A stretch of 32,000 nucleotides of DNA from Candidatus Electrothrix yaqonensis (lineage in GTDB: Bacteria; Desulfobacterota; Desulfobulbia; Desulfobulbales; Desulfobulbaceae): positions 3,240,001 to 3,272,000 of the forward strand of contig CP178758.1 of assembly GCA_047651235.1 (NCBI GenBank), given 5' to 3'. Shown piece by piece: positions 19,270 through 32,000 of the stretch. Numbering within the stretch: position 1 is the stretch's first letter; each line of letters begins with the position of its first letter. Made by a program: the position numbers and the translations under genes. The notes under the pieces are model-generated. The model made no database searches and was not told the DNA's origin. It worked only from the letters and a program-made list of their open reading frames with translations.

Positions 19270-19710
19270 ATGACTGATCAGAATCACTTTCGTATCACCG
19301 CTGCCGTGGTCCTTCCGGCTGCCGAGCTGTCGTTCAGTTATTCGCGCAGCAGCGGTAAAGGCGGGCAGCATGTGAACAAGGTCAATACCAAGGTATCCCT
19401 GCACTTTGACTTGGCCGCTTCGCAGAGCCTGACTGATGAGCAGAAAACGCTGATCCAGCAGCGGCTTGCCGGACGGATAAACAATCAGGGCGTACTTCGG
19501 CTGGACAACGACCGGCAGCGCAGCCAAAGGGGCAATCAGGAGGAGGTGATCCGGCGGTTCATCAGCCTGCTGCAGGCCGCCCTGCACGTCCGCAAAAGTA
19601 GGCGCCGAACCCGGCCTTCGCGGAAAGCCCGGCAGCGCCGACTGCAGACGAAAAAGCAGCGCAGTCAGCTCAAGCGGCAGCGGACGCAGCGGGATTTTGA
19701 GAAGGAGTGA
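19270..19710 (+). CDS. arfB: Alternative ribosome-rescue factor ArfB (peptidyl-tRNA hydrolase, GGQ domain plus basic C-terminal tail)
   Basis: The 146-aa ORF has a GKGGQHVNKVNTKV GGQ motif and an Arg/Lys-rich tail (RKSRRRTRPSRKARQRRLQTKKQR). Confidence 0.88.
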   Translation: MTDQNHFRITAAVVLPAAELSFSYSRSSGKGGQHVNKVNTKVSLHFDLAASQSLTDEQKTLIQQRLAGRINNQGVLRLDNDRQRSQRGNQEEVIRRFISLLQAALHVRKSRRRTRPSRKARQRRLQTKKQRSQLKRQRTQRDFEKE

Positions 19711-19716
19711 GGCTGC
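19686..19716 (+). repeat. Direct repeat, left copy (covers the last 7 codons and stop of arfB)
   Basis: gcagcgggattttgagaaggagtgaggctgc matches 21144-21174 at 29 of 31 positions. Confidence 0.85.
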
Positions 19717-19743
19717 GGGATAAGAAGCTTATAAAAGAACAGC

Positions 19744-19953
19744 TCATTCTTTCTTGAAGATTTTATTTATGCTTTCTTGGTAATCACTTTTTTTCATTTG
19801 ATTTATTTCCCCAAAACGATTAAGAGTAAACTTAAATTCATTTGGTGCTATCTGATTTGTGTCATCTATGTAAATCCTTGATATACCTTTTGAATTATCC
19901 TTTCCCAAAAATAGAGTTGTATTTTCTGAACGTCCAAATAATATTTTCTGCAT
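19744..19953 (-). CDS. Hypothetical small protein (69 aa), last gene of the islet
   Basis: The ORF starts 12 nt downstream of the preceding ORF's stop codon on the same strand. Its AT-rich codon usage is consistent with the islet. No motif was recognised. Confidence 0.45.
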   Translation of the reverse strand: MQKILFGRSENTTLFLGKDNSKGISRIYIDDTNQIAPNEFKFTLNRFGEINQMKKSDYQESINKIFKKE

Positions 19954-19964
19954 AGCATCCCCTT

Positions 19965-20390
19965 TTAAGTTAATTGCTTGGAATCTTTCATTTCTACAAG
20001 GACATTATCCAAAACAGAGATCATCTTTTCTTCAATATACCGTTCCATGCCAAGCACAACAACTTTGCGGTTTTTAACGATATGGCTAAGTGAACGTTCA
20101 AGACGAATATATTCAGCAAGAGAATCTGCAAAAGTACAAGCTAATTGAACATCGTCTTCATTAAATACATTTTCTTTTTTACTTCCAATACACAATAAAG
20201 CATAAGGTATGCCATGCAGTATCACAGGAGCTACGAGGCCTGACTTATAGTGTTTAGTGAATTCTTGTTGAATTTTAGTAAATCTATCTACAAATACTAC
20301 TCTTTTAGTGAAGAAACATTTCCAAAATAATGTTTGTCGAAGTTTTTGCATTTGTATTTTCATCAAAATCAAGATTATCGACAATATCAT
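19965..20390 (-). CDS. C-terminal half of a GAF-like domain protein (probably the downstream part of a frameshifted gene)
   Basis: SGLVAPVILHGIPYALLCIGSKKENVFNEDDVQLACTFADSLAEYI resembles the C-terminal half of GAF domains. The first ~25 codons overlap the upstream ORF in another frame and look non-native. Confidence 0.5.
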   Translation of the reverse strand: MILSIILILMKIQMQKLRQTLFWKCFFTKRVVFVDRFTKIQQEFTKHYKSGLVAPVILHGIPYALLCIGSKKENVFNEDDVQLACTFADSLAEYIRLERSLSHIVKNRKVVVLGMERYIEEKMISVLDNVLVEMKDSKQLT

Positions 20391-20970
20391 CAGGTCTCAA
20401 AGGATCACTCGAAGGGTCACGGAACAATTCCAACTCTTTCAATTTAAAAGGAATTTCCTTGTAAGACTCTTTGTTTGAAACATCTAACCTTTCAGAATCC
20501 TTGTAACATACTCCTTTAATTGATACCCTGAGTCCTCCGTTTGCCAACAAGGAGTGGCGGTGTCTCATGGCTTCTCTATAACCACTAATCAAATTTACAA
20601 TATATTTTCTTAAAAGGTTTAGCATATCCTCCATTCGCAAACTATTGCTGTTATCTTCACCTAACTCTTCGTCTTCAACCATTTTGTCGATGAATCTCTT
20701 GTACATATGCCAAGAGTTATGAGTCTTGTAAAATATCTTATGATAACTGTCAACCACATAATAAAGTTCGCGAGCCTTCCGAGTACGATTGATCAACATT
20801 AAAAACAACGTAATAGTTAACATAACCATTACTACGGAAAGAGAAGCAAAATACCACTTGCCTACATCTTGAATAGCCATTGCAACAGTTATAACAGAAG
20901 CAACCAACCCAAAACTTATTGAAGCTGCTTGGCTAAATTCTATCAGTAATTCTTTTGTTCGCTCGATCAT
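20305..20970 (-). CDS. 2-TM membrane protein with the N-terminal half of a GAF-like cytoplasmic domain
   Basis: The 221-aa ORF has two hydrophobic helices (AASISFGLVASVITVAMAI and WYFASLSVVMVMLTITLFLMLI) followed by a soluble region. It overlaps the next ORF by 86 nt. Confidence 0.55.
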   Translation of the reverse strand: MIERTKELLIEFSQAASISFGLVASVITVAMAIQDVGKWYFASLSVVMVMLTITLFLMLINRTRKARELYYVVDSYHKIFYKTHNSWHMYKRFIDKMVEDEELGEDNSNSLRMEDMLNLLRKYIVNLISGYREAMRHRHSLLANGGLRVSIKGVCYKDSERLDVSNKESYKEIPFKLKELELFRDPSSDPLRPDDIVDNLDFDENTNAKTSTNIILEMFLH

Positions 20971-21108
20971 ATTAACAGGAAGGCATACTTATATTTTAAA
21001 GAAAAAACTTCTAAATGAAAAGAAAAAAAACAAAAATCATACAGAGGTAATATATTGAAATAAAACCTAAAAACAAAGCCGAACACGGATCAACGATATT
21101 AAATATAA

Positions 21109-21539: not shown

Positions 21540-23141
21540 ATGACCATTGAGTTTTACGACACCACCCTCCGGGACGGCACCCAGGCCGAGAACTTCAATC
21601 TTTCGGTTGACGATAAGATCAAAATTAGCCATCAGCTGGACAAGTTGGGGATTGATTTTATCGAAGGCGGCTGGCCTGGTTCCAATCCCCTGGCAGTGGA
21701 GTATTTTGAAAAGATGAAGGGCGTGGAACTCAAACATGCCCGACTCACCGCCTTCGGCGCGACCCGGCATTTTCAGAATCCGCCGGATAAAGATCCGAAT
21801 CTCCAGGCCCTGCTGGCTGCCGAGACTCCGGGAATCACCATTTTCGGCAAGAGCTGGGATATCCATGTCCACGATGCCCTGCGCATCGAGCTGGAGGACA
21901 ATCTGCAGATCATCGAGGATTCCCTAGCCTATCTGCGTCCCCATGTCCAACATCTGATCTATGATGCCGAGCATTTTTTTGACGGCTTCAAGAATAACCG
22001 GGAATACTGTCTGGCGACCCTGGAACGGGCCGTCCGGGGCGGAGCGGAAACCTTGGCCCTGTGCGATACCAACGGCGGCACCCTGCCGCATGAAATTCCG
22101 CCGATCATCGAACGGGTTAAACAGTTTCTGGAGGAACTGGGCAGCACAGCTAGGATTGGTATCCATCCTCATAACGATTCCGAGACCGGGGTGGCCAATG
22201 CCCTGCTGGGGGTTTCTCTGGGAGCGGGTCAGGTCCAGGGCACCATCAACGGCTACGGCGAACGCTGCGGCAATGCCAACCTGACCTCGATCATCCCGGC
22301 GGTGATCTGCAAGATGGGCCTGGAGGCTGAGGTGGGCAAGCATATCGACAAGCTCTATACCACCTCCCGGCTGATCAATGAACTGGCCAACCTGCCCCAC
22401 AACCGGTATCAGCCCTATGTGGGCGAGTCCGCCTTTGCCCATAAGGGCGGCATCCATGTCAGTGCAGTGCAGCGCAATCCCCTGACCTATGAACATATTG
22501 AGCCGGAGAAAGTGGGCAATGTCCGCCGCATCCTGATCTCCGACCAGGCCGGCAAGTCCAATGTCATGCACAAGGCGGTCAAGTACGGCCTGAATCTGAA
22601 GGCCGATGATCCGGCCATGTCCCAGATCGTCCGTGACCTCAAGGAGCTGGAAAACCAGGGGTTTCAGTATGAGGGGGCAGAGGCCAGCTTTGAGCTGCTC
22701 ATGCGCCGGGCAATGGGGATCAAACCCCGTTTTTTCATTCTGGAAAGTTTCCGGGTCATGAATAATAAATACCGGATGGATTCCGCTTCGCTCACAGAGG
22801 CCACCATCCGCCTGACCGTGGACGGCGAAGAGGCCCATACCGCTTCGCTGGGCAACGGCCCGGTCAATGCCTTGGACAAAGCCATGCGTAAGGCCCTGCT
22901 CCGGTTTTATCCCCGCCTGGAGGAAATGGAACTGGTGGACTACAAGGTGCGGGTGCTGTCCGGCGAACACGGCACCGGGGCCAAGGTCCGGGTTCTGGTG
23001 GAGAGCCGGGATGCGGACAGCCACTGGAGCACGGTCGGCGTTTCCCTGAATATCATCGAGGCCAGCTGGCAGGCCCTTGAGGATGCCGTCAACTACAAGC
23101 TAATGAAGGATGCGCGGAGGGAGAGAGGTGCATCCGCATGA
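21540..23141 (+). CDS. cimA: Citramalate synthase (LeuA-related, isoleucine pathway)
   Basis: The 533-aa ORF has FYDTTLRDGTQAENF, HPHNDSETGVAN and a C-terminal LeuA-dimerisation-type domain. Length and N-terminus fit the CimA/TIGR00977 type rather than LeuA. Confidence 0.85.
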   Translation: MTIEFYDTTLRDGTQAENFNLSVDDKIKISHQLDKLGIDFIEGGWPGSNPLAVEYFEKMKGVELKHARLTAFGATRHFQNPPDKDPNLQALLAAETPGITIFGKSWDIHVHDALRIELEDNLQIIEDSLAYLRPHVQHLIYDAEHFFDGFKNNREYCLATLERAVRGGAETLALCDTNGGTLPHEIPPIIERVKQFLEELGSTARIGIHPHNDSETGVANALLGVSLGAGQVQGTINGYGERCGNANLTSIIPAVICKMGLEAEVGKHIDKLYTTSRLINELANLPHNRYQPYVGESAFAHKGGIHVSAVQRNPLTYEHIEPEKVGNVRRILISDQAGKSNVMHKAVKYGLNLKADDPAMSQIVRDLKELENQGFQYEGAEASFELLMRRAMGIKPRFFILESFRVMNNKYRMDSASLTEATIRLTVDGEEAHTASLGNGPVNALDKAMRKALLRFYPRLEEMELVDYKVRVLSGEHGTGAKVRVLVESRDADSHWSTVGVSLNIIEASWQALEDAVNYKLMKDARRERGASA

Positions 23142-23698
23142 AAAACATATTTTTCTCGTGTATTCTGCTGATCTGTTCCTTTTTTATTATTTCCTGCAAT
23201 CGGGAAGGACAGAAAGAAAAGACAGCCGGTTCGAAGACGGGACAAAACGAAACAACGGCAGTTGCAGTAGCAGCTGTCGGCCACTCGGCACCGGACTTCA
23301 CCCTGAAAGATGTTCTGGGCAGAACGTGGACGTTGTCGGAACTGAAAGGGCAGGTGGTCTTTGTCAACTTTTGGGCAACATGGTGCCCGCCCTGTATCAG
23401 TGAAATGCCTTCGATGCAGAATCTGTACGAGACGCTGCCGAACGACCAGTTCAAGATGCTGGCCGTCCTCAACCGGGATAAGCCTGCAAATGCAGACAAG
23501 TTTATTGAAGATTTCGGCATTTTCATCCCCATCCTGTATGATCAGGATAACACGGTCGGGGCAAAATACGGTCTCACCGGAGTGCCTGAAACCTTTATCG
23601 TGGACAAGCAGGGTATTATCCGGGAGAAGATTATCGGCCCGGCAGAGTGGGATTCCCCGGGTGCAATGCAGATGCTGCGGCAGTATCTCAATCAATAG
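23138..23698 (+). CDS. TlpA/ResA-like thioredoxin-fold thiol:disulfide oxidoreductase lipoprotein
   Basis: The signal peptide has a lipobox-like IISC. The WATWCPPC active site is present. The start overlaps the cimA stop (ATGA). Confidence 0.85.
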   Translation: MKNIFFSCILLICSFFIISCNREGQKEKTAGSKTGQNETTAVAVAAVGHSAPDFTLKDVLGRTWTLSELKGQVVFVNFWATWCPPCISEMPSMQNLYETLPNDQFKMLAVLNRDKPANADKFIEDFGIFIPILYDQDNTVGAKYGLTGVPETFIVDKQGIIREKIIGPAEWDSPGAMQMLRQYLNQ

Positions 23699-23715
23699 CA
23701 GACGGGCAGTTTCCG

Positions 23716-24186
23716 GTGCGGCAGGAATCATCACACCGCGACCTTCGCCTTCCTGTCCTCCTTTTTCTCGGCGTAATCATTCTCGCTGCAGGTCAGTACA
23801 CGTCGGAGCCGGACAGTCGGGCGGGTGCATATTATCTTGCCCTTTCTGCCGGGCAAAACAAGGACAGACCGGAGCTCGTTCGGATCAGCGGAACAGAGCC
23901 GAAGCACCTCGCCGGTTTCCGGAAAATAACGCCTGATCTTCCCTGTGCGGCAACCCCGCCGGAACTTGCCCTGCTGTTCAATCTGCCCCTGCCCATCAAT
24001 CGGGCTGACCAAGATACCCTGACCATGCTGCCGGGAATCGGCCCCAAGCTGGCAGAGAGAATCGTTGCTTTTCGGAAAAAACAGGGCGACATCACCGGGC
24101 CGGAAAATTTCATCCGGATCAGGGGCATCGGCCCGAAACGGACCGCACGTCTGACTCCGCTGCTCTGCTTTGCCGGAACAATGTGA
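23716..24186 (+). CDS. ComEA-like helix-hairpin-helix DNA-binding protein with N-terminal membrane anchor
   Basis: The C-terminus has INRADQDTLTMLPGIGPKLAERIVAFRKKQG...IRGIGPKRTARL (two HhH motifs). The TM segment is LRLPVLLFLGVIILAAG. The start is ambiguous: GTG 23716 avoids overlap, while the track start GTG 23647 overlaps the upstream gene by 52 nt. Confidence 0.75.
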   Translation: MRQESSHRDLRLPVLLFLGVIILAAGQYTSEPDSRAGAYYLALSAGQNKDRPELVRISGTEPKHLAGFRKITPDLPCAATPPELALLFNLPLPINRADQDTLTMLPGIGPKLAERIVAFRKKQGDITGPENFIRIRGIGPKRTARLTPLLCFAGTM

Positions 24187-24386: not shown

Positions 24387-25739
24387 ATGACAGACAACAG
24401 CCGGAATCGGATTTCCATTTGGGAGGCCAAGAACCGACTGGCCTTTAATGAACCGCTCAAGCCCGGTGATCCGCTCTTTGTCGAGACTGACTCGGCCCGT
24501 GGGGATTTCAGCCTCAAGCGACTCTACCGGGAACTGAACGTGGATAACCAGGGCATTGCCCATAGCAAACCTGCTGCGCCCCCTAAGCAATACACCCTCT
24601 TGACCGGGCATCGCGGTTGCGGCAAAAGCACCGAGCTGCTGCGTATGGCCGAGTATCTCCATGATCCAGCCCGCTATTATGTCATCCATCTGGACTGCCT
24701 GGAAAAACTGGATATCCACAATCTGAAATACTCGGATGTGCTGCTGGCCCTGGCGGCTGCCCTGTTTGACCGCCTTGAAAAGGAAGAGGGGATCGAGATG
24801 GAACAGGTGCATCTGACCCGCCTGGAAAACTGGTTCCGGGAGAAGGTGGAGGTGCATAGCGATCTGCGTGAATTTACCGCAGAGGTCAGAGGTGCGGTCA
24901 AGGCCAGGACCGGCCTGCCCTGGCTGGTCAAGCTCTTTGCCGAGCTGACCAACAAGATTAATATCGGCTCGACCTATCGGGAAGAACTGCGCCTGGTGGT
25001 ACGTAACAACTTCAGTGAATTTGCCGAGGCCTTTAACCAGCTCATCCGGGCTGGTGAAGAAAAGATCCGGACTGAAGGCAAGGGGCAGCGTATTCTGTTC
25101 ACCGTGGACGGCACGGATCGGCTCAACAGTGAGGACTCCAGCAAGTTCTTTGTCGAAGATGTCCATCAGTTGACCCAAATTTCCGGCCTATTCATCTACT
25201 GCGCCCCCATCCACCTGCTCCATCAGGACAACTGCCTTAATGCCAGCTTCAGCCAGTCCTTCCGTTTGCCCATGCTCAAAATTCGGGACCGGGACAATGA
25301 CGAAATCCCGGAAAATGTCGCCGTGATGCGGGAACTGGCTCTGCGCCGGGTGCCGGAATACCTGTTTGACGATCTTGCCACCCTGGACTATCTGATCTCA
25401 TACAGCGGCGGCCATCCCCGCGATATGATCCGGCTGCTCAACACAGCGGTCAATTTTGCCGAGGAGGAACGTATTGACCGGGCCGCTGCGGAAAAGGCGA
25501 TCAAGCAGGTAGCCAATGAATACCGCCGTTTTATCAACACTGACGACTACGTCCGCCTAGTCCAGATCGATCTGCATCCGGATGCGCCTGATGACTTCAC
25601 TGACCAGCAGAGCAGTGAAATGCTCTACAATCTGCTCCTGCTGGAGTACAACGACTACGACTATTTCTGGAAAAGCCACCCGGTGATCACCAGCCTGCCG
25701 GGCTACCAGAAGGCTCTTCAGGCAACCGGCTGTGTCTGA
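24387..25739 (+). CDS. P-loop NTPase of AAA+/STAND-like type (Walker A GHRGCGKST, Walker B ILFTVDGTD), no effector domain recognised
   Basis: The 450-aa ORF has Walker A at LLTGHRGCGKSTELL and a NACHT/Cdc6-like Walker B at RILFTVDGTDRL. The later GGHPRDMIRLLN resembles an AAA+ lid/sensor-2 region. No SD is visible before the ATG. Confidence 0.7.
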   Translation: MTDNSRNRISIWEAKNRLAFNEPLKPGDPLFVETDSARGDFSLKRLYRELNVDNQGIAHSKPAAPPKQYTLLTGHRGCGKSTELLRMAEYLHDPARYYVIHLDCLEKLDIHNLKYSDVLLALAAALFDRLEKEEGIEMEQVHLTRLENWFREKVEVHSDLREFTAEVRGAVKARTGLPWLVKLFAELTNKINIGSTYREELRLVVRNNFSEFAEAFNQLIRAGEEKIRTEGKGQRILFTVDGTDRLNSEDSSKFFVEDVHQLTQISGLFIYCAPIHLLHQDNCLNASFSQSFRLPMLKIRDRDNDEIPENVAVMRELALRRVPEYLFDDLATLDYLISYSGGHPRDMIRLLNTAVNFAEEERIDRAAAEKAIKQVANEYRRFINTDDYVRLVQIDLHPDAPDDFTDQQSSEMLYNLLLLEYNDYDYFWKSHPVITSLPGYQKALQATGCV

Positions 25740-26970
25740 ACAGAAGCACTGGCAGCTCCGGCCGGAGCACTCCGGCTGCCTGCTCCGCCTGCAGAAGATA
25801 CTGGAGCGGGTGCGGGGTTTCCGCGTGCTCATCCTGCAGCATAACCGGCCCAAATACCGGGACGGGATAATTGCCTTTCTCCGGGAGGCTGAGCCGGACA
25901 GCGCCCTGCTGGATCTGAAGGAGTCAGGCAGCTTTGCCGCTTTTGAGGCCGAGTTGGGCAAGTACAGCCTGATCCGGCAGCTGCATCTGATCAATCTGGA
26001 AGCGCTGCCCAGGGCAGAGCAGCAGGCCTTTTTCAAGGGGCTGAATTATCACCGGGAACACCTCGCCCGCACCTGCAGCGGCATTCTTCTTTTCTGGCTG
26101 CCGGACCATCTCATTAATCAGCTGGCTGTGGAGGCCCCGGATTTCTGGGCCTGGCGGGAGCAGGTGTTGGATTTCAGTGTGCCGGTTGAGCCGGTGGAGC
26201 GGATGACCGTTGACTGGGTTAAAAGCTGGAACTTGGAGCTTTCTGGGAAACAGGAACGGATAAAGGAGATTGAGGATTTTCTCGCCCGTCCCGCCGAGGA
26301 GCCTTCCTTAACCGCTGCCGATCTCAAACGGGAGCTGGGCAATCTGTATGAATCAATCGGCGAATACACTGAGGCTAAAAAAATACTGGAGGCCGCAGTT
26401 GACGAGTACGGCCAGCTGGACGAAGCTCAAGCCCGCGCCTCTGCCCGGCGTGATCTGGCTGAGCTGCTGGCTACTCAAGGTGATCCTGATCAGGCTCTGA
26501 TTATGCTCAGAGAACAGGTACTTCCTGTCTTCCGGCAGTTAAACAATGTACAGGAAGAGGCTGAAACCAAAGACCGGATCGCGGACATTTTTGAGCGGCG
26601 GGGCGAACTGGATGCGGCTCTCAGAATTCGGGAACAAGAAATATTGCCGTTTGTTGAGCGTCTCGGTGATTTACGTAATAAGGCCGTGACCATGGGGAAG
26701 ATAGCCGACATCCTTGAGACGCGCGGCCAGCTCGACGACGCTCTCAAAATCAGAGAGCAGGAAGAGCTAACCATATATGATCGGATCGGCGATGTGCGAG
26801 AACTATTGCTTTGCCGAACCAAGATTGCGCTCCTACTTCATGAAATGGATGCTGAAACGAATCAAGAAAGGATTGAAAAATTGCTGCGCCTCGCCTTGGC
26901 TGATGCCCGGCGGCTCAAGCTGCCCAGGGAAACAGCATGGATTGAGGGGATTATACGTAAAACAAAATGA
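25732..26970 (+). CDS. TPR-repeat protein with an N-terminal degenerate NTPase-like region
   Basis: The 412-aa ORF has a GTG start overlapping the upstream stop by 8 nt. The C-terminal half has repeated ~40-aa units (GELDAALRIREQEILPFVERLGD / GQLDDALKIREQEELTIYDRIGD). The N-terminus has strand-like FRVLILQHN without a P-loop. Confidence 0.7.
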   Translation: MSEQKHWQLRPEHSGCLLRLQKILERVRGFRVLILQHNRPKYRDGIIAFLREAEPDSALLDLKESGSFAAFEAELGKYSLIRQLHLINLEALPRAEQQAFFKGLNYHREHLARTCSGILLFWLPDHLINQLAVEAPDFWAWREQVLDFSVPVEPVERMTVDWVKSWNLELSGKQERIKEIEDFLARPAEEPSLTAADLKRELGNLYESIGEYTEAKKILEAAVDEYGQLDEAQARASARRDLAELLATQGDPDQALIMLREQVLPVFRQLNNVQEEAETKDRIADIFERRGELDAALRIREQEILPFVERLGDLRNKAVTMGKIADILETRGQLDDALKIREQEELTIYDRIGDVRELLLCRTKIALLLHEMDAETNQERIEKLLRLALADARRLKLPRETAWIEGIIRKTK

Positions 26971-27097: not shown

Positions 27098-28111
27098 ATG
27101 AACCCTGAACTGCGCCCGGATTTTTCCCTGCAGGGCGAGGACGAAATTTTTCAGCAGATGATCAAGCTGACCGTGAAGATGATGGAGGAGTCGAAAGACG
27201 GATGTCCGCTCCGTGTGCAGCACGCAAAGGCGACCGCCTGTGTGACTGCCAGCTTTGAGATCGAGCAGGATATACCCGATGACCTCCGTTACGGGATCTT
27301 CACGCAGCCCGGCAGAACCTTTGACGCCATTGTCCGATTTTCCAACGCTCAGGGAAGCATTGAGCCTGACGGAGAAGCAACAGGACGGGGGCTGGCCATC
27401 AAACTGCCTGAGGTTGACGGCTCCCGTGCCCTGGAAGGAGATACCGACAGAAGCCAGGATTTTCTGTTCGTGAATCATCCTGTGTTTCCTTTTCCGACCC
27501 CGAAAGAGTACCTGGAAATTATAGAACGCAAAAACATTCCGCTGGTTGGGGATCTGCTGACTCTGGCCCACTTGTTCTTTGACCGGGACCAGCTTGAGAT
27601 TATCAAGAAGATAAGGGCGAAGTCCATTGCCAGTCCTCTCAGCAGCCCCTACTGGAGCGGTGCGCCGTTCTGGCTCGGAGATGCTGCCGGGACAACAGGC
27701 CAAGCCGTGAAGTACTCGGCAATTCCTGCTGCGCATACCCCCGGGCCTGCTGACCCGGAAAAAATGTCTGCAGATTATCTGCGGGAGGCTGTTGCCGAGC
27801 ACCTTGCGCAACAGGAAGCGATTTTCGACTTCATGGTGCAGCAGCAGGGTGACCCGGTCAAAATGCCGATTGAGGATGCCTCTGTATACTGGGATGAACA
27901 GAAGTCAGTGCCTGTGAAGGTGGCGACGCTGCGTATCGCTATGCAGCCTGTCGAGAAAGGCAGTGAGCTGAAAAAACGCTGTGAAGCCATGTCGTTTACC
28001 CCTTGGCATGCGCAGAAAGAGCACCGCCCGTTGGGCGGGATCAACCGTCTGCGCAAAGCGGTGTACTCTGCCAGCTTTACTGAGCGGGAGCGGCGGAAGA
28101 AAGCGGTGTGA
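27098..28111 (+). CDS. Catalase-related haem protein (mini-catalase / catalase-family protein)
   Basis: The 337-aa ORF has LRVQHAKATACV (distal His region), VRFSNAQG...GRGLAIKL and a C-terminal RLRKAVYSAS (candidate proximal Tyr). A strong SD AAGGAGGAA lies upstream. Confidence 0.7.
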   Translation: MNPELRPDFSLQGEDEIFQQMIKLTVKMMEESKDGCPLRVQHAKATACVTASFEIEQDIPDDLRYGIFTQPGRTFDAIVRFSNAQGSIEPDGEATGRGLAIKLPEVDGSRALEGDTDRSQDFLFVNHPVFPFPTPKEYLEIIERKNIPLVGDLLTLAHLFFDRDQLEIIKKIRAKSIASPLSSPYWSGAPFWLGDAAGTTGQAVKYSAIPAAHTPGPADPEKMSADYLREAVAEHLAQQEAIFDFMVQQQGDPVKMPIEDASVYWDEQKSVPVKVATLRIAMQPVEKGSELKKRCEAMSFTPWHAQKEHRPLGGINRLRKAVYSASFTERERRKKAV

Positions 28112-28206
28112 AGTGTGAATAGCTTAACTTCAGCAGATATTGCGTCCCCGGCAGGGACAGCATCCATTAAGCCGGTATTTCCACCGGGTTTCAGGGAGGA
28201 ACCCCA

Positions 28207-29391
28207 ATGTCCGAAGACAGTTTCACCGAAGTCACTGAGCAGTCCTGGTTCAGCCGAATCGGGAAATCCATCACAGGCATCTTTTTCGGCCTTCTTCTCT
28301 TTGTCGCCGCCTTTCCGCTCCTGTTCTGGAACGAAGGCCGGGCCGTGAAGACCTATAAGACCCTGAAGGAAGGCGCGGGAGCTGTTGTCTCCGTTCCTGC
28401 GGACCGGGTTGACCCGGCCAATGCGGGCAAACTGATTCACATTACCGGCAGGGCAGTCACAGAGGACACGCTGACCGATCCGGTCTTCGGTCTTTCCGCT
28501 AATGCCCTGAAACTGCTGCGGCGGGTGGAAATGTATCAGTGGGAGGAAGAATCAAGCAGCACAACGGAGAAGAAGGTCGGCGGTGGCACAAAGACTGTGA
28601 CCAAGTATTCCTACAGCAAAACATGGTCAGACCGTGCAATCAATTCCTCCAGCTTCAGAAAATCCGGGTACGATAATCCCGGTTCCATGCCGTATGCAAA
28701 TGCGGAGCAGATTGCGGACAGGGTTATGCTCGGCGCCTTCACGCTCCCGACCTCATTGGTCAGCAAAATCGGCGGCGCGCAGCAGCTGCCGGTTAGCAGC
28801 GAAACCCCTTTGCCTGATGAACTGGTAGGCCGGGCACAACGGCATGATAGCGGTATCTATATCGGCAATAATCCGTCTGATCCACAGATAGGGGATGTCC
28901 GCATTCATTTTGAGACCGTGCCGCAGCAGGAGATCAGCGTGGTTGCCCAGCAGACCGGCAGCAGTTTCACTGCCTACCAGACCAGCGCAGGCGGCACCAT
29001 TGAACTCCTGCAGACAGGCACCAGAACCGCTGAAGCCATGTTCCAAAAGGCGCAGACCGACAACAAGATCCTGACCTGGATACTGCGGGTTGTCGGGTTC
29101 ATCCTGATGCTTATCGGCCTGAACCTGATCTTCAAGGTGTTCTCCGTGCTCGCAGATGTCCTGCCGTTCCTCGGCAGCATTGTCGGGGCCGGAACCGGCA
29201 TTATCTCCTTTCTGATTGCCGGAGTGCTCTCCCTGATCACCATTGCCGTGGCCTGGATCGTTTTTCGCCCCATTCTGGGTGCTATCCTACTGGCGGCGGC
29301 TGTGGTGCTGATCGTGCTGATCGGCGGCAGGATTAAGGCGGGCAGGGCAAAGGTGGCAACGCCTCCGCCTCCTCCTCCGGCAGCGGCATGA
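28207..29391 (+). CDS. TMEM43/DUF1625 family membrane protein with C-terminal poly-Pro tail
   Basis: The 394-aa ORF has the N-terminus SWFSRIGKSITGIFFGLLLFVAAFPLLFWNEGRAV, typical of the family. C-terminal TM helices are present, and the protein ends PPPPPPAAA. Confidence 0.7.
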   Translation: MSEDSFTEVTEQSWFSRIGKSITGIFFGLLLFVAAFPLLFWNEGRAVKTYKTLKEGAGAVVSVPADRVDPANAGKLIHITGRAVTEDTLTDPVFGLSANALKLLRRVEMYQWEEESSSTTEKKVGGGTKTVTKYSYSKTWSDRAINSSSFRKSGYDNPGSMPYANAEQIADRVMLGAFTLPTSLVSKIGGAQQLPVSSETPLPDELVGRAQRHDSGIYIGNNPSDPQIGDVRIHFETVPQQEISVVAQQTGSSFTAYQTSAGGTIELLQTGTRTAEAMFQKAQTDNKILTWILRVVGFILMLIGLNLIFKVFSVLADVLPFLGSIVGAGTGIISFLIAGVLSLITIAVAWIVFRPILGAILLAAAVVLIVLIGGRIKAGRAKVATPPPPPPAAA

Positions 29392-29492
29392 GAAAAAAAA
29401 TGAGGAGAAACGGAGAGCTGTTCCGAAGCGGAAAAAGGCATTTCTTCAGAGAATTACACACAAGGATCAACTGAAATAACAAGGAGGAAAAA

Positions 29493-29921
29493 ATGAAACG
29501 AGTACTGATGTTGTGCGCCTGTCTGTTCATACTTGCCGGCTGCGGCGGAACAGGCGGGACCGGCGGAATCGGGGGGGATGTAGAACTCCCGTTCACCGTG
29601 GATCTGAGGGCAGGGGCTTCCACAAGGATAAACAGTGACCTCACCATCCGTTTTGTCGGGGTGACCAATGAGTCCCGCTGTCCCACCGGTGCGCAGTGTG
29701 CCTGGGCGGGGAATGCGGAAGTGGAGCTGGCTCTGAGCGGTTCCGGTGATCAGGTTACCCATCTGAATACAGGCGCCCAGTACCCCCGGACAGAAAAATA
29801 TCACGGCTATACCATCACCCTGCAGGAGCTGAAACCGTATCCTGTTGCCGGGCAGACCATTAGCCCCGGTTCCTATACTGCTGTGTTGGTCATTGCGCAG
29901 GAGGCGCCTGCTTCTCCCTGA
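29493..29921 (+). CDS. Small lipoprotein (hypothetical)
   Basis: The signal peptide has a lipobox LAGC followed by a Gly-rich linker. A conserved-looking ESRCPTGAQCAWAGNAEV motif follows. An AAGGAGG SD lies upstream. Confidence 0.7.
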   Translation: MKRVLMLCACLFILAGCGGTGGTGGIGGDVELPFTVDLRAGASTRINSDLTIRFVGVTNESRCPTGAQCAWAGNAEVELALSGSGDQVTHLNTGAQYPRTEKYHGYTITLQELKPYPVAGQTISPGSYTAVLVIAQEAPASP

Positions 29922-30035: not shown

Positions 30036-30256
30036 CATAATCGCAACAAACTGGATTCAGGCAGAAATCAATAGATCCAGCAATTCTGGACACTGCTGAA
30101 GACTCTGTCCCTGTTGGGCCTGTCCGCACGGGCCTTTCACCGTATTGTCAAAATTGCCCGCACTATTGCCGATCTGGCCGGAGCCGAGCGGATCGATGCT
30201 GCCCATGTGGCTCTGAGGCGGTGCAGTACCGGCGGCAGCAGTTTGATGCGGGGTGA
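30036..30256 (+). pseudogene. comM: 5'-truncated, decayed 3' remnant of comM/yifB (Mg-chelatase-like ATPase)
   Basis: Translation gives ...IQQFWTLLKTLSLLGLSARAFHRIVKIARTIADLAGAERIDAAHV, matching the conserved ComM/YifB C-terminus. There is an in-frame TAG at 30072-30074. A -1 frameshift near 30210 moves the expected EAVQYRRQQFDAG-stop ending (to 30256) into another frame. The 5' boundary is approximate. Confidence 0.7.
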
Positions 30257-30317
30257 TTTCTGCAGTACAAATACCTTGGCCTTGCGTAGCAGCAATGAAA
30301 CTCACGTGGAGATACGT

Positions 30318-30713
30318 ATGCCCCTTGACGACTTGGCCTGGCGCTTCAGCGATCTGATTTTCAACGGCTGCTTTCCCTCCACTGTGCATGAGCGGCTTGC
30401 AGGTGAGCTGGTCAAGGCACGGCTCATGAAGGCGTCGAACCGGTTTGACGAGGCCCTTGAGATTATCAACAGGACGCTTGACAGACTGCCTGATTATCCC
30501 GAGGCATTACTCCTCAAGGCGCAGATACTCTGGGAAGGATATGCCGATTATCCGAGAGCAAAAGCCTGTTTACAGCAAGTCATCCGAATGAAGCGAACGA
30601 AGAACGAACAGGATGAAATCATCCGCCGATGGTGTGAAAATCTGCTCAAGGAAATGCGTGCGGAGAAACGGGCGCAGCACAGGAGAGCGGAGGCGGATAA
30701 GCGGCGGGGATAG
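30318..30713 (+). CDS. Small TPR-like helical protein with basic C-terminal tail (hypothetical)
   Basis: The ATG at 30318 has a GGAG SD 6 nt upstream. The track ORF from TTG 30114 artificially fuses it to the comM remnant. The TPR-like region reads FDEALEIINRTLDRLPDYPEALLLKAQILWEGY. Confidence 0.55.
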   Translation: MPLDDLAWRFSDLIFNGCFPSTVHERLAGELVKARLMKASNRFDEALEIINRTLDRLPDYPEALLLKAQILWEGYADYPRAKACLQQVIRMKRTKNEQDEIIRRWCENLLKEMRAEKRAQHRRAEADKRRG

Positions 30714-30846: not shown

Positions 30847-31824
30847 TCAAACCTCGGTAATGATGCTTGTCCGGCGGAATTCGTCTCCAGGGAACACGCG
30901 GCCCGTTACCAAAGTGGAAAAGATATGGTCAAACACCAAACCAGATTTCCCTTGCACTCTGCCAGACCTGAAGTAACTGTGGCCCTTTGGCCAGTCGTAG
31001 GCATTGTTGATGTCGTCGCAGTCAACAGCATAGACGTTTGATGGGGTTAGCTTCATATTATCAGGTCCCGTGTGCCCGAGCCGCCGTGACGCGACTTTAT
31101 TCTTGAGGTTGGCCGCTTTGCTGGCGCGTAGAGCGAGGTCGTCAGATGCGTAATATACAATGACGTTGCGGGAGGCGTGGCAGATCAACTCTCCCTTCTT
31201 CCCGGGCTCAAGCGACTCATTTACTATATCTGCTGCAACCAAGAACGTATTCCTGAATATAAATGGCACCCCGTCTGCCAGATCGTATTTGTTCCACGCT
31301 GCTAAGGTCTCACACAACACGCGGTTTCCCATAGAATGGGCCAGAATATTGATCCTTTTCAGGCAGGGATCTGCTTGGGGGTTGTGTTGGTCAGTGTTTC
31401 TCCACGCTATGAACTTCTGTAGCACCCGCGCGAAGGAATGGTCACTGGCATCCGCCGACTTCTGGTCATCCCAATAGTCCTTAACTACCCCCAAATCATT
31501 GTCACAGGGCCACACCAAGGGGACAACGAGAACCTCACGATCTTTCTTGGCATCGCAGAGTGCTTGAAATTCATTAACGGCTTTGAACACGTCTTCGGGA
31601 AGGTTTGAAAAACCGTGAATGTAAATGAGCACCTGACGATAGGGAGATTGCTTCAAGCGTGACAAGAAGTCAATGCTGCCAATCTCCGTGGAAGCACCAT
31701 CGGACGTGCGTTCGCAAAAGAACACCGACTTGCTTGGTGTATTGTTATTCAAATCAAACTCAAACGTACGTCCAACTCGTGTGCGGATACTCTGCCGCGG
31801 AAAACGATTAGTGATATAAAGCAT
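30847..31824 (-). CDS. Alpha/beta hydrolase of the DUF900 type
   Basis: MLYITNRF..., VLIYIHGFSN and the nucleophile elbow AHSMGNRV are present. The ATG at 31824 is preceded by GGAGGAGAGGAA. The track ORF start at 31884 is probably too far upstream. Confidence 0.7.
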   Translation of the reverse strand: MLYITNRFPRQSIRTRVGRTFEFDLNNNTPSKSVFFCERTSDGASTEIGSIDFLSRLKQSPYRQVLIYIHGFSNLPEDVFKAVNEFQALCDAKKDREVLVVPLVWPCDNDLGVVKDYWDDQKSADASDHSFARVLQKFIAWRNTDQHNPQADPCLKRINILAHSMGNRVLCETLAAWNKYDLADGVPFIFRNTFLVAADIVNESLEPGKKGELICHASRNVIVYYASDDLALRASKAANLKNKVASRRLGHTGPDNMKLTPSNVYAVDCDDINNAYDWPKGHSYFRSGRVQGKSGLVFDHIFSTLVTGRVFPGDEFRRTSIITEV

Positions 31825-32000
31825 TTCCTCTCCTCCTAATTTGTATTTACCGCGATTCCTATAGACAGAAGTCTCAGGGAACAAATTATACTACAGTTTC
31901 CCCCTGTCGAGCAGAATTGCATGATAACCAGAAAACTGTCAGACTTTCTCAAATGCAGGCTCTTGTTATCTTTGTACAGGATTATCATACCTCGCGTCAA

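Follow-up and report, generated by a model that had tools for sequence, protein, structure and literature searches.

In this study, we analyzed two overlapping genes, here called A and B, in a stretch of 32,000 nucleotides (nt) from the cable bacterium Candidatus Electrothrix yaqonensis (contig CP178758.1, positions 3,240,001 to 3,272,000 of the forward strand), referred to below as the window. On balance, the two genes probably encode a self-contained, heteromeric and nucleotide-dependent switch, in which A would be an active AAA+ ATPase and the sensor would be carried by an inactive subunit, B; its output and role we infer. This reading builds on the gene structure, the sequence motifs, the predicted folds, the conserved pairing of A with the N-terminal domain of B (B_N), the lack of a third conserved gene and a module behind B_N that varies between relatives. 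The features of the pair, with positions counted within the window and protein positions in amino acids (aa), are as follows.

24387-25739, plus strand: gene A, ATG start, 450 aa, predicted active ORC/Cdc6-STAND-type AAA+ ATPase (list of open reading frames (ORFs), homologs, AlphaFold2 (AF2) model)
24387-24581, plus strand: conserved N-terminal extension of A, aa 1-65 (alignments, AF2 model)
24606-24632, plus strand: Walker A motif of A, GHRGCGKST, aa 74-82 (alignment of 47 sequences)
24696-25073, plus strand: helical insert of A between strands 2 and 3, aa 104-229 (helices in the AF2 model)
25092-25118, plus strand: Walker B motif of A, ILFTVDGTD, aa 236-244, with a NACHT-like DGxD (alignment of 47 sequences)
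25407-25424, plus strand: lid motif of A, GGHPRD, aa 341-346, a GxP with a sensor-2-type arginine (alignment)
25479-25724, plus strand: predicted C-terminal winged helix of A, aa 365-446 (AF2 model)
25732-25739, plus strand: overlap of the A stop and the B start, 8 nt, GTGTCTGA (sequence)
25732-26970, plus strand: gene B, GTG start, 412 aa, predicted inactive AAA+-like domain followed by an array of tetratricopeptide repeats (TPR) (ORF list)
25732-26181, plus strand: B_N, aa 1-150, predicted P-loop-less AAA+-like alpha/beta domain (AF2, Foldseek, alignments)
26302-26946, plus strand: TPR array of B, aa ~191-405, about five units of 40-41 aa (Pfam TPR models)

Genes were called as longest ORFs; a caller based on guanine-cytosine (GC) frame did worse and was dropped. 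The TGA stop codon of A occupies 25737-25739 and the GTG start codon of B lies at 25732, resulting in the 8-nt overlap. The coordinates and strand of both genes, and the position of the GTG within the stop region of A, were confirmed as given in an earlier reading of this DNA made from its letters alone (the sequence-only reading). An AT-rich gap of about 190 nt lies upstream of A, and between B and the gene at 27098 there is a gap of 127 nt with a strong ribosome-binding site. B is 100% identical to a protein of the cable bacterium Candidatus Electrothrix sp. YB6.

Homologs of A, of which more than 524 were found, form a large and tight family with lengths of 440-455 aa and about 47% identity across phyla. 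An alignment of 47 of them has 48 invariant columns, and the three motifs which the sequence-only reading had pointed out (GHRGCGKST, ILFTVDGTD and GGHPRDMIRLL, the latter at aa 341-351) all lie on such columns: G74, H75, G77, G79, K80, S81 and T82 in Walker A, F238, D241, G242, D244 and R245 in Walker B, and G341, G342 and R345 in the lid. W428, H431 and P432 are also invariant and belong to the winged helix. In the N-terminal extension, W12, P23, L24 and R38 are invariant in an alignment of 18 sequences, and the extension was modelled with a predicted local distance difference test (pLDDT) score of about 91 though it is largely coil.

The AF2 model of A (pLDDT 90.4, predicted template modelling score 0.89) consists of an AAA+ core, a lid and a C-terminal winged helix. 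The lid is formed by helices at 308-357 with G-H-P-R at 342-345, and the winged helix by helices at 385-414 and a beta-hairpin at 418-430. The insert of about 120 aa sits where the HEH/initiator-specific insert is found, and a weak Pfam match to VMAP-M1 covers aa 137-219 of it. In a structure search of the PDB, the closest solved folds were Cdc6 (1fnn), ORC4, RuvB, RFC, TnsC and RdrA. At the level of Pfam models, ORC-CDC6-like (PF24389) scored 27.2 bits against a cut-off of 27, with only 52 of the 571 profile positions covered (lid, aa 334-392), and matched 32 of the 47 homologs; AAA_16, ATPase_2 and NACHT gave further weak generic matches. For the window copy, NACHT (15.7 bits, cut-off 26.7) and nSTAND_NTPase5 (16.9 bits, cut-off 34) stayed below their cut-offs, and NACHT matched 36 of the 47 family members with E-values down to 6.9e-8. 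A has the P-loop and the hhhhDGxD/E-type Walker B of STAND proteins and, in the model, their tripartite order of nucleotide-binding domain (NBD), GxP-containing lid and winged helix. Sensor repeats and an effector, which also characterize STAND proteins, are missing from the chain, which ends after the winged helix. As the sequence-only reading had claimed, neither an N-terminal effector nor a C-terminal sensor was found, and the 65-aa extension is all that precedes the core. From motifs and model, A is predicted to be an intact ORC/Cdc6-STAND-type AAA+ ATPase that lacks its own sensor and effector.

In B, the segments FRVLILQHN, LHLINLE and ILLFWLP correspond to strands 1, 3 and 4 of an N-terminal alpha/beta domain predicted by AF2 (pLDDT 89, five strands, topology a0-b1-a1-b2-a2-b3-a3-b4-a4-b5). 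In a Foldseek search of the PDB with B_N, AAA+ modules ranked at the top and some other P-loop NTPases lower, with a best E-value of 6.6e-4 and a template modelling (TM) score of about 0.45. The AAA+ matches included NSF/Sec18, Skd3, Yta7, ORC subunits, RFC, a clamp-loader chain, MuB, Hda, RuvB and Cdc6. These matches, though statistically marginal, are in line with the P-loop-less NTPase core that had been suspected here. HNRPKYRD stands in the position of the P-loop, LHLINLE takes the place of hhhhDE, and a lid is absent; strand 5 (aa 142-147) is followed by a low-confidence linker and then by the TPR array. No Pfam family matched B_N, even at E-values up to 1, and sequence-profile searches of the PDB with the proteins of the pair gave no match. 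A profile of B_N retrieved 5203 cluster representatives from a library of 1.84 billion proteins, and in the best 150 of these it was N-terminal in all 150.

Alignments of 38 and 23 sequences of the TPR type of B showed R43, N105, R108, A135, D137, R142 and F148 of B_N to be invariant, and the motifs NxxRE and PDxxxW are common to the whole B_N family, including the cyanobacterial members described below. R142, at the base of strand 5, takes the position of arginine fingers of the ORC/Cdc6 type, and an invariant arginine is missing from the equivalent place in A. A function of R142 as a general arginine finger acting in trans was considered and is weakened, since the residue, although invariant in the TPR type, lacks conservation in cyanobacterial B_N. 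Also, descent of B_N from the ATPase core of A as a paralog was unsupported (hhalign probability 42%, elements out of register).

The ~40-aa repeats noted earlier in B scored above the cut-offs of TPR_12 (51.9 versus 30.1 bits), TPR_14 (30.5 versus 23.5 bits) and TPR_7 (29.6 versus 27.9 bits). The alignment of B homologs, most of which carry more TPR units (total length about 370-870 aa), also shows the repeat consensus, and the units are regular, near consensus and not hypervariable. The pair had been described as a split, effector-less STAND module. The lack of an effector held, but a simple split of NTPase and sensor did not: B has a degenerate AAA+ domain of its own, and it is this domain, not the TPR array, whose pairing with A is conserved.

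The conservation of the pair was analyzed in a collection of one genome per species (185,579 species), in which at least 530 stretches carry relatives of A; the pair statistics refer to 80 loci recovered with a profile of A. In 73 of these, from about ten phyla, B_N is encoded directly downstream of A on the same strand, which argues that the arrangement is not due to chance. The homologs are thus conserved neighbours in other genomes, where a lack of such neighbours would have spoken against a functional pair. Of the seven exceptions, four are due to contig ends, which leaves three real ones (loci L004, L024 and L042). The host taxa comprise Desulfobulbales, several gammaproteobacterial orders, Spirochaetia, Acidobacteriota, Verrucomicrobiota, Chloroflexota, Armatimonadota, Omnitrophota, Latescibacterota, Entotheonella and Magnetococcus. 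At junctions with both ORFs callable, A and B mostly overlap by 4, 8 or 14 nt, counted from the first possible start codon of each ORF, and the pair seems to be mostly single-copy among the loci kept. Compared with the window copies, homologs of A are on average 44% and those of B_N 34% identical; a faster divergence of B would be expected if B holds the sensing part.

The three real exceptions are of two kinds. Two Electrothrix lineages, one of them Ca. E. laxa, have an intact A directly followed by a lipoprotein gene, with B missing (L004, 2305-4257; L024, 8001-9963), which indicates that A can persist without an adjacent B. In Methylovulum sp. (L042, 7956-11248), the reading frame of A continues into an AAA_15/AAA_21 ABC-type ATPase, with a DUF3226 gene behind it and again without B; this locus is placed between topA/dprA and obg.

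Relatives of the pair also occur on plasmids. By tblastn, A-like ATPases with 25-28% identity were detected on nine cyanobacterial plasmids. Six of seven plasmid loci inspected have a stand-alone A-like gene, and in all six a product starting with B_N is encoded downstream on the same strand. Over their full length, the cyanobacterial ATPases fit the profile of A (E-values 1e-42 to 1e-50), and the N-termini of their partners match B_N (1e-17 to 1e-22). Assignment of these ATPases to the Sll1717 family was rejected, as they gave no NCBIfam match. Behind B_N, nSTAND1 and WD40 are found in Acaryochloris plasmids, WD40 in Nostoc, and NB-ARC plus TPR in an acidobacterial partner (L062); B_N occurs alone in L084 and in 38 short cyanobacterial proteins. 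This varying module behind B_N suggests that A and B_N are the constant core and that the sensor is interchangeable. The genes around the plasmid loci encode NB-ARC, TIR, NACHT, CHAT-TPR and HicAB proteins. On plasmid4 of Calothrix sp. NIES-4101 (L086, 4980-11017), a gene for a TIR protein of 697 aa separates the A-like ATPase gene from that of a protein with two B_N copies in tandem, annotated as WD-40 repeat-containing. The seventh locus, on a plasmid of Nostoc sp. C057 (L083, 4207-7131), has the A-like module as the C-terminal portion of a protein of 974 aa, a "SAV_2336 N-terminal domain-related protein". The gene of this protein directly follows one for a MoxR family ATPase, an order that resembles a MoxR-vWA-type ternary system (Kaur et al. 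2020).

In the switch that we favour, a protein or peptide ligand would be bound by the TPR array of B, and binding would free or position B_N. B_N might then dock on A as a pseudo-protomer, like the inactive subunits in ORC, clamp loaders and BrxB-BrxC, and docking would alter ATP binding or hydrolysis by A and its assembly state. The output would run via the winged helix and the helical insert of A, probably by binding of nucleic acid or of an unlinked partner. Since B_N stands in front of STAND sensors and near TIR, NB-ARC and NACHT genes in its relatives, a role in surveillance or conflict signalling, in a minimal effector-less form, is most likely. A bolder variant, which we hold only tentatively and consider rather doubtful, takes B_N as an unrecognised adaptor, a dead AAA+ module that recruits the stand-alone A to diverse sensors, with A as a non-enzymatic effector assembling ATP-dependently on nucleic acid.

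Clustering of about 900 flanking ORFs from the 80 loci yielded no third conserved gene. A Pfam census of two genes on each side of 61-74 TPR-type loci gave 130-141 families, none of which occurred more than five times and most of which were housekeeping, and a PADLOC census of the same range gave scattered defence-like matches only. Domains of enzymatic effectors (nuclease, TIR, protease, pore-forming) were found neither in A and B nor in conserved neighbours. Likewise, no MoxR, vWA or BREX genes and no transposase, integrase or repeat boundary are conserved beside the TPR-type pair in the 80 loci, and 50,697 phage records contained no homolog of the pair. An origin from a phage or transposon was rejected, given the lack of phage matches and of linked transposases. 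It is also highly improbable that the pair is a mobile-element accessory, with A as a TnsC/MuB/IstB-like AAA+ regulator of target selection or transposition and B as its adaptor. TnsC and MuB are indeed among the structural neighbours of A and B_N, but the same missing transposases, integrases and repeat boundaries, the absence from phage records and the stable position of the pair within Electrothrix speak against it.

Within the cable bacteria, the pair and the lipoprotein gene at 29493-29921 are syntenic across Electrothrix and Electronema, as in the order A, B, lipoprotein of locus L001, and this link is limited to these organisms. In the window, two genes on the plus strand are located in between at 27098-29391, one catalase-related (weak PF00199) and one of the TMEM43 family (PF07787, 279.6 bits). 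Because neither occurs in the other Electrothrix and Electronema loci and both are found only in the window strain, 27098-29391 represents a local insertion outside the system. The sequence-only reading had placed the pair in an accessory block and had considered the genes from 27098 to 29921 as possible partners. Neither view could be upheld: within that region, only the insertion is of this kind, and 27098-29921 was rejected as part of the system, with the insertion being strain-specific and the lipoprotein gene being syntenic at most within the genus and not conserved outside of it. The pair keeps a stable position and an ordinary evolutionary rate within Electrothrix, and it is vertically inherited within cable bacteria.

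These data also bear on a function in anti-phage or anti-plasmid defence with A as the effector, in which the TPR array would sense an invader protein and A would arrest the cell or the invader via binding or remodelling of nucleic acid or via consumption of ATP. Such a function appears rather unlikely for the pair, even though the distant relatives on cyanobacterial plasmids lie amid NB-ARC, TIR, NACHT, CHAT-TPR and HicAB genes, with one TIR gene between the ATPase and a B_N-WD40 protein, and even though one A-like module is part of a protein beside a MoxR ATPase, as in MoxR-vWA ternary conflict systems. Many of the hosts are filamentous, aggregate-forming or large-genome organisms, in which such conflict systems are enriched (Kaur et al.), and the fusion of A to an AAA_15/AAA_21 ATPase next to DUF3226 in Methylovulum fits as well. 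However, PADLOC-DB 2.0 has no significant model for A or B: the best match of A was PDC-S20 (E-value 0.0016, 15.8 bits), and the insignificant matches of B all fell within the repeat region. An enrichment next to defence genes, as had been suggested for examination, is not evident in the mostly housekeeping flanks of the TPR type with their scattered defence-like matches. The phage records without a homolog, the synteny and ordinary rate within Electrothrix and the absence of nuclease, TIR, protease and pore-forming domains also count against defence.

Housekeeping flanks, ordinary rate, vertical inheritance and regular repeats, together with the missing effector and PADLOC matches, leave a regulatory or housekeeping role of the TPR type open. 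Here, the pair would be a switch outside of conflicts: either a split MalT/AfsR-like transcription regulator, in which a TPR ligand and ATP control DNA binding by the winged helix, or an assembly factor. The C-terminal winged helix of A, its high conservation with 48 invariant columns in 47 sequences, the mostly single-copy occurrence in housekeeping contexts and near-consensus TPR units that are not hypervariable agree with this, and STAND NTPases are known to include non-immune regulators (PMC13581612). We nevertheless regard it as distinctly unlikely. With at least 530 stretches in the 185,579-species collection, the distribution across phyla is patchy, which points to horizontal spread and dispensability; some Electrothrix lineages have lost B, neither a target operon nor any other gene is conserved beside the pair, and the wider family is tied to STAND, TIR and WD40 architectures of the conflict type.

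The switch of an active and an inactive AAA+ subunit therewith remains the reading that we favour, and several points weigh against it. The assignment of B_N to the AAA+ fold depends on marginal Foldseek statistics, and the proposed contact between A and B_N is inferred. With R142 not conserved in cyanobacterial B_N, an arginine finger in trans would not be a general mechanism and would be confined at most to the TPR subfamily. Intact A genes occur without B in L004, L024 and L042. The neighbourhoods of the TPR type are mostly housekeeping without evident enrichment of defence islands, and about 47% identity across phyla is a strong conservation for an arms-race gene.

Among known systems, the nSTAND2 two-gene operon is comparable, for which an active and an inactive STAND protein were predicted to form a hetero-multimer (Kaur, Iyer, Burroughs, Aravind 2021, eLife; PMC8195603). 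Both have adjacent genes for an active and an eroded NTPase, a variable module on the inactive one and a patchy distribution, with the nSTAND2 operon being mobile. In contrast to B, which carries only TPR, the inactive nSTAND2 protein bears a GT4 or HEPN effector, and both nSTAND2 proteins retain the arginine finger. This comparison was made by description, with weak DAP3 matches in 6 of the 47 A homologs as the lone sequence hint. Another precedent for an active/inactive pair is BrxB, an iSTAND protein of BREX, with the ORC/Cdc6-type ATPase BrxC (PMC12839542). Like B, BrxB is separately encoded, works with an active ORC/Cdc6-type AAA+ ATPase and was proposed as a sensor or regulatory subunit. 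BREX, however, requires further genes, including those for a methyltransferase and PglZ, and none of these is linked to the A-B pair. BrxB evolves rapidly and has a three-stranded cap insert after strand 4; such strands are missing from the AF2 model of B_N, which differs further by its conserved NxxRE and PDxxxW motifs and its TPR fusion. With a predicted STAND/ORC-Cdc6-like core and eroded Walker A and B motifs, B_N may be called iSTAND-like, a marginal likeness for which the published iSTAND, iSTAND2 and BrxB were compared by description.

Single-chain STAND proteins (Avs, NB-ARC-TPR, nSTAND1-WD40, MalT/AfsR) use the same repertoire of NBD, lid, winged helix and repeat sensor; A shares the NACHT-like Walker B and the GxP lid motif with them, and some relatives of B are full NB-ARC-TPR or nSTAND1-WD40 proteins with an N-terminal B_N. 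Unlike in these proteins, the active NTPase and the sensor are on separate chains here, the sensor protein has a dead NTPase domain, and no effector or DNA-binding output domain is present besides the winged helix of A. The Sll1717 family P-loop ATPase model (NF047389) resembles A in length (454 positions versus 450 aa), and aa 39-372 of protein P0095 align with model positions 9-350, which is nearly the whole ATPase. Nevertheless, all scores were below the cut-off of 75 bits (window A 42.7, P0095 59.2, P0058 40.5); the literature searched contained no mention of Sll1717, and on DS-41 it held nothing of relevance. Inactive AAA+ subunits such as clamp-loader delta prime, ORC and Hda-type proteins follow the same logic, in that an inactive AAA+ completes an active neighbour, and the fold matches of B_N include ORC subunits, RFC, chain F of the E. 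coli clamp loader and Hda. These inactive subunits have no sequence relationship to B_N, and their complexes act in replication and keep the lid domain.

Searches of literature and libraries, including cable-bacterium TPR and ATPase genes and split STANDs, gave no description of the pair, and profile searches with PADLOC, NCBIfam, Pfam and PDB placed neither protein in a characterised system or housekeeping complex, in agreement with the initial impression that the pair belongs to no named system. Its components and logic are of known kinds, i.e. STAND/ORC-type ATPases, iSTAND-like dead modules and TPR sensors. The combination of a stand-alone ATPase with a dead-AAA+ partner domain N-terminal to interchangeable sensors, and without an effector, is unnamed.

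Some further observations concern the surroundings. At seven loci (L003, L033, L064, L072, L073, L079 and L049, from Electronema, Spirochaetia and Pyrinomonadaceae), an NtrC-type sigma-54 response regulator is encoded no more than 8 kb away from the pair, in most cases together with a PAS histidine kinase, which was not found in L049 and L073; these are three or four independent occurrences and may be due to chance. In the window, an ORF at 30114-30713 (plus strand) matches the extreme C-terminus of ComM/YifB with its first 33 aa (PF13335, positions 56-88 of 94; TIGR00368, 461-493 of 499) and runs on into a TPR_19 region, so that it resembles a 3′ remnant of comM fused to unrelated sequence. 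Convergent with it, a gene for a DUF900 alpha/beta-hydrolase (PF05990, E-value 1.8e-19) is located at 30847-31884 on the minus strand. Upstream of the pair, at 23138-24186 (plus strand), a TlpA-like redoxin ORF (23138-23698) and a ComEA-like ORF (called from 23647) overlap by 52 nt, the real start of the latter probably being further downstream. Around 19500-21000, the GC content drops to 0.35-0.39 compared to about 0.55 in the surroundings, which may indicate foreign DNA; minus-strand ORFs lie there at 19965-20390 and 20305-20970.

If the pair were instead a housekeeping regulator, a function would be provided for a large family annotated just as "ATP-binding protein" and "tetratricopeptide repeat protein". 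If the adaptor variant were true, a widespread sensor-effector family with thousands of clusters in many phyla would have been missing from the catalogues of defence systems. Should the favoured switch model be right, the pair would represent a minimal and widespread form of STAND-type signalling, with the nucleotide switch and the sensor in separate proteins and no conventional effector. It would also offer a simple two-protein system for the control of an active AAA+ protein by an inactive subunit, test whether such systems can operate outside defence islands, and extend the known set of bacterial signalling and conflict modules by B_N, a domain with 5203 cluster representatives and without a Pfam entry.

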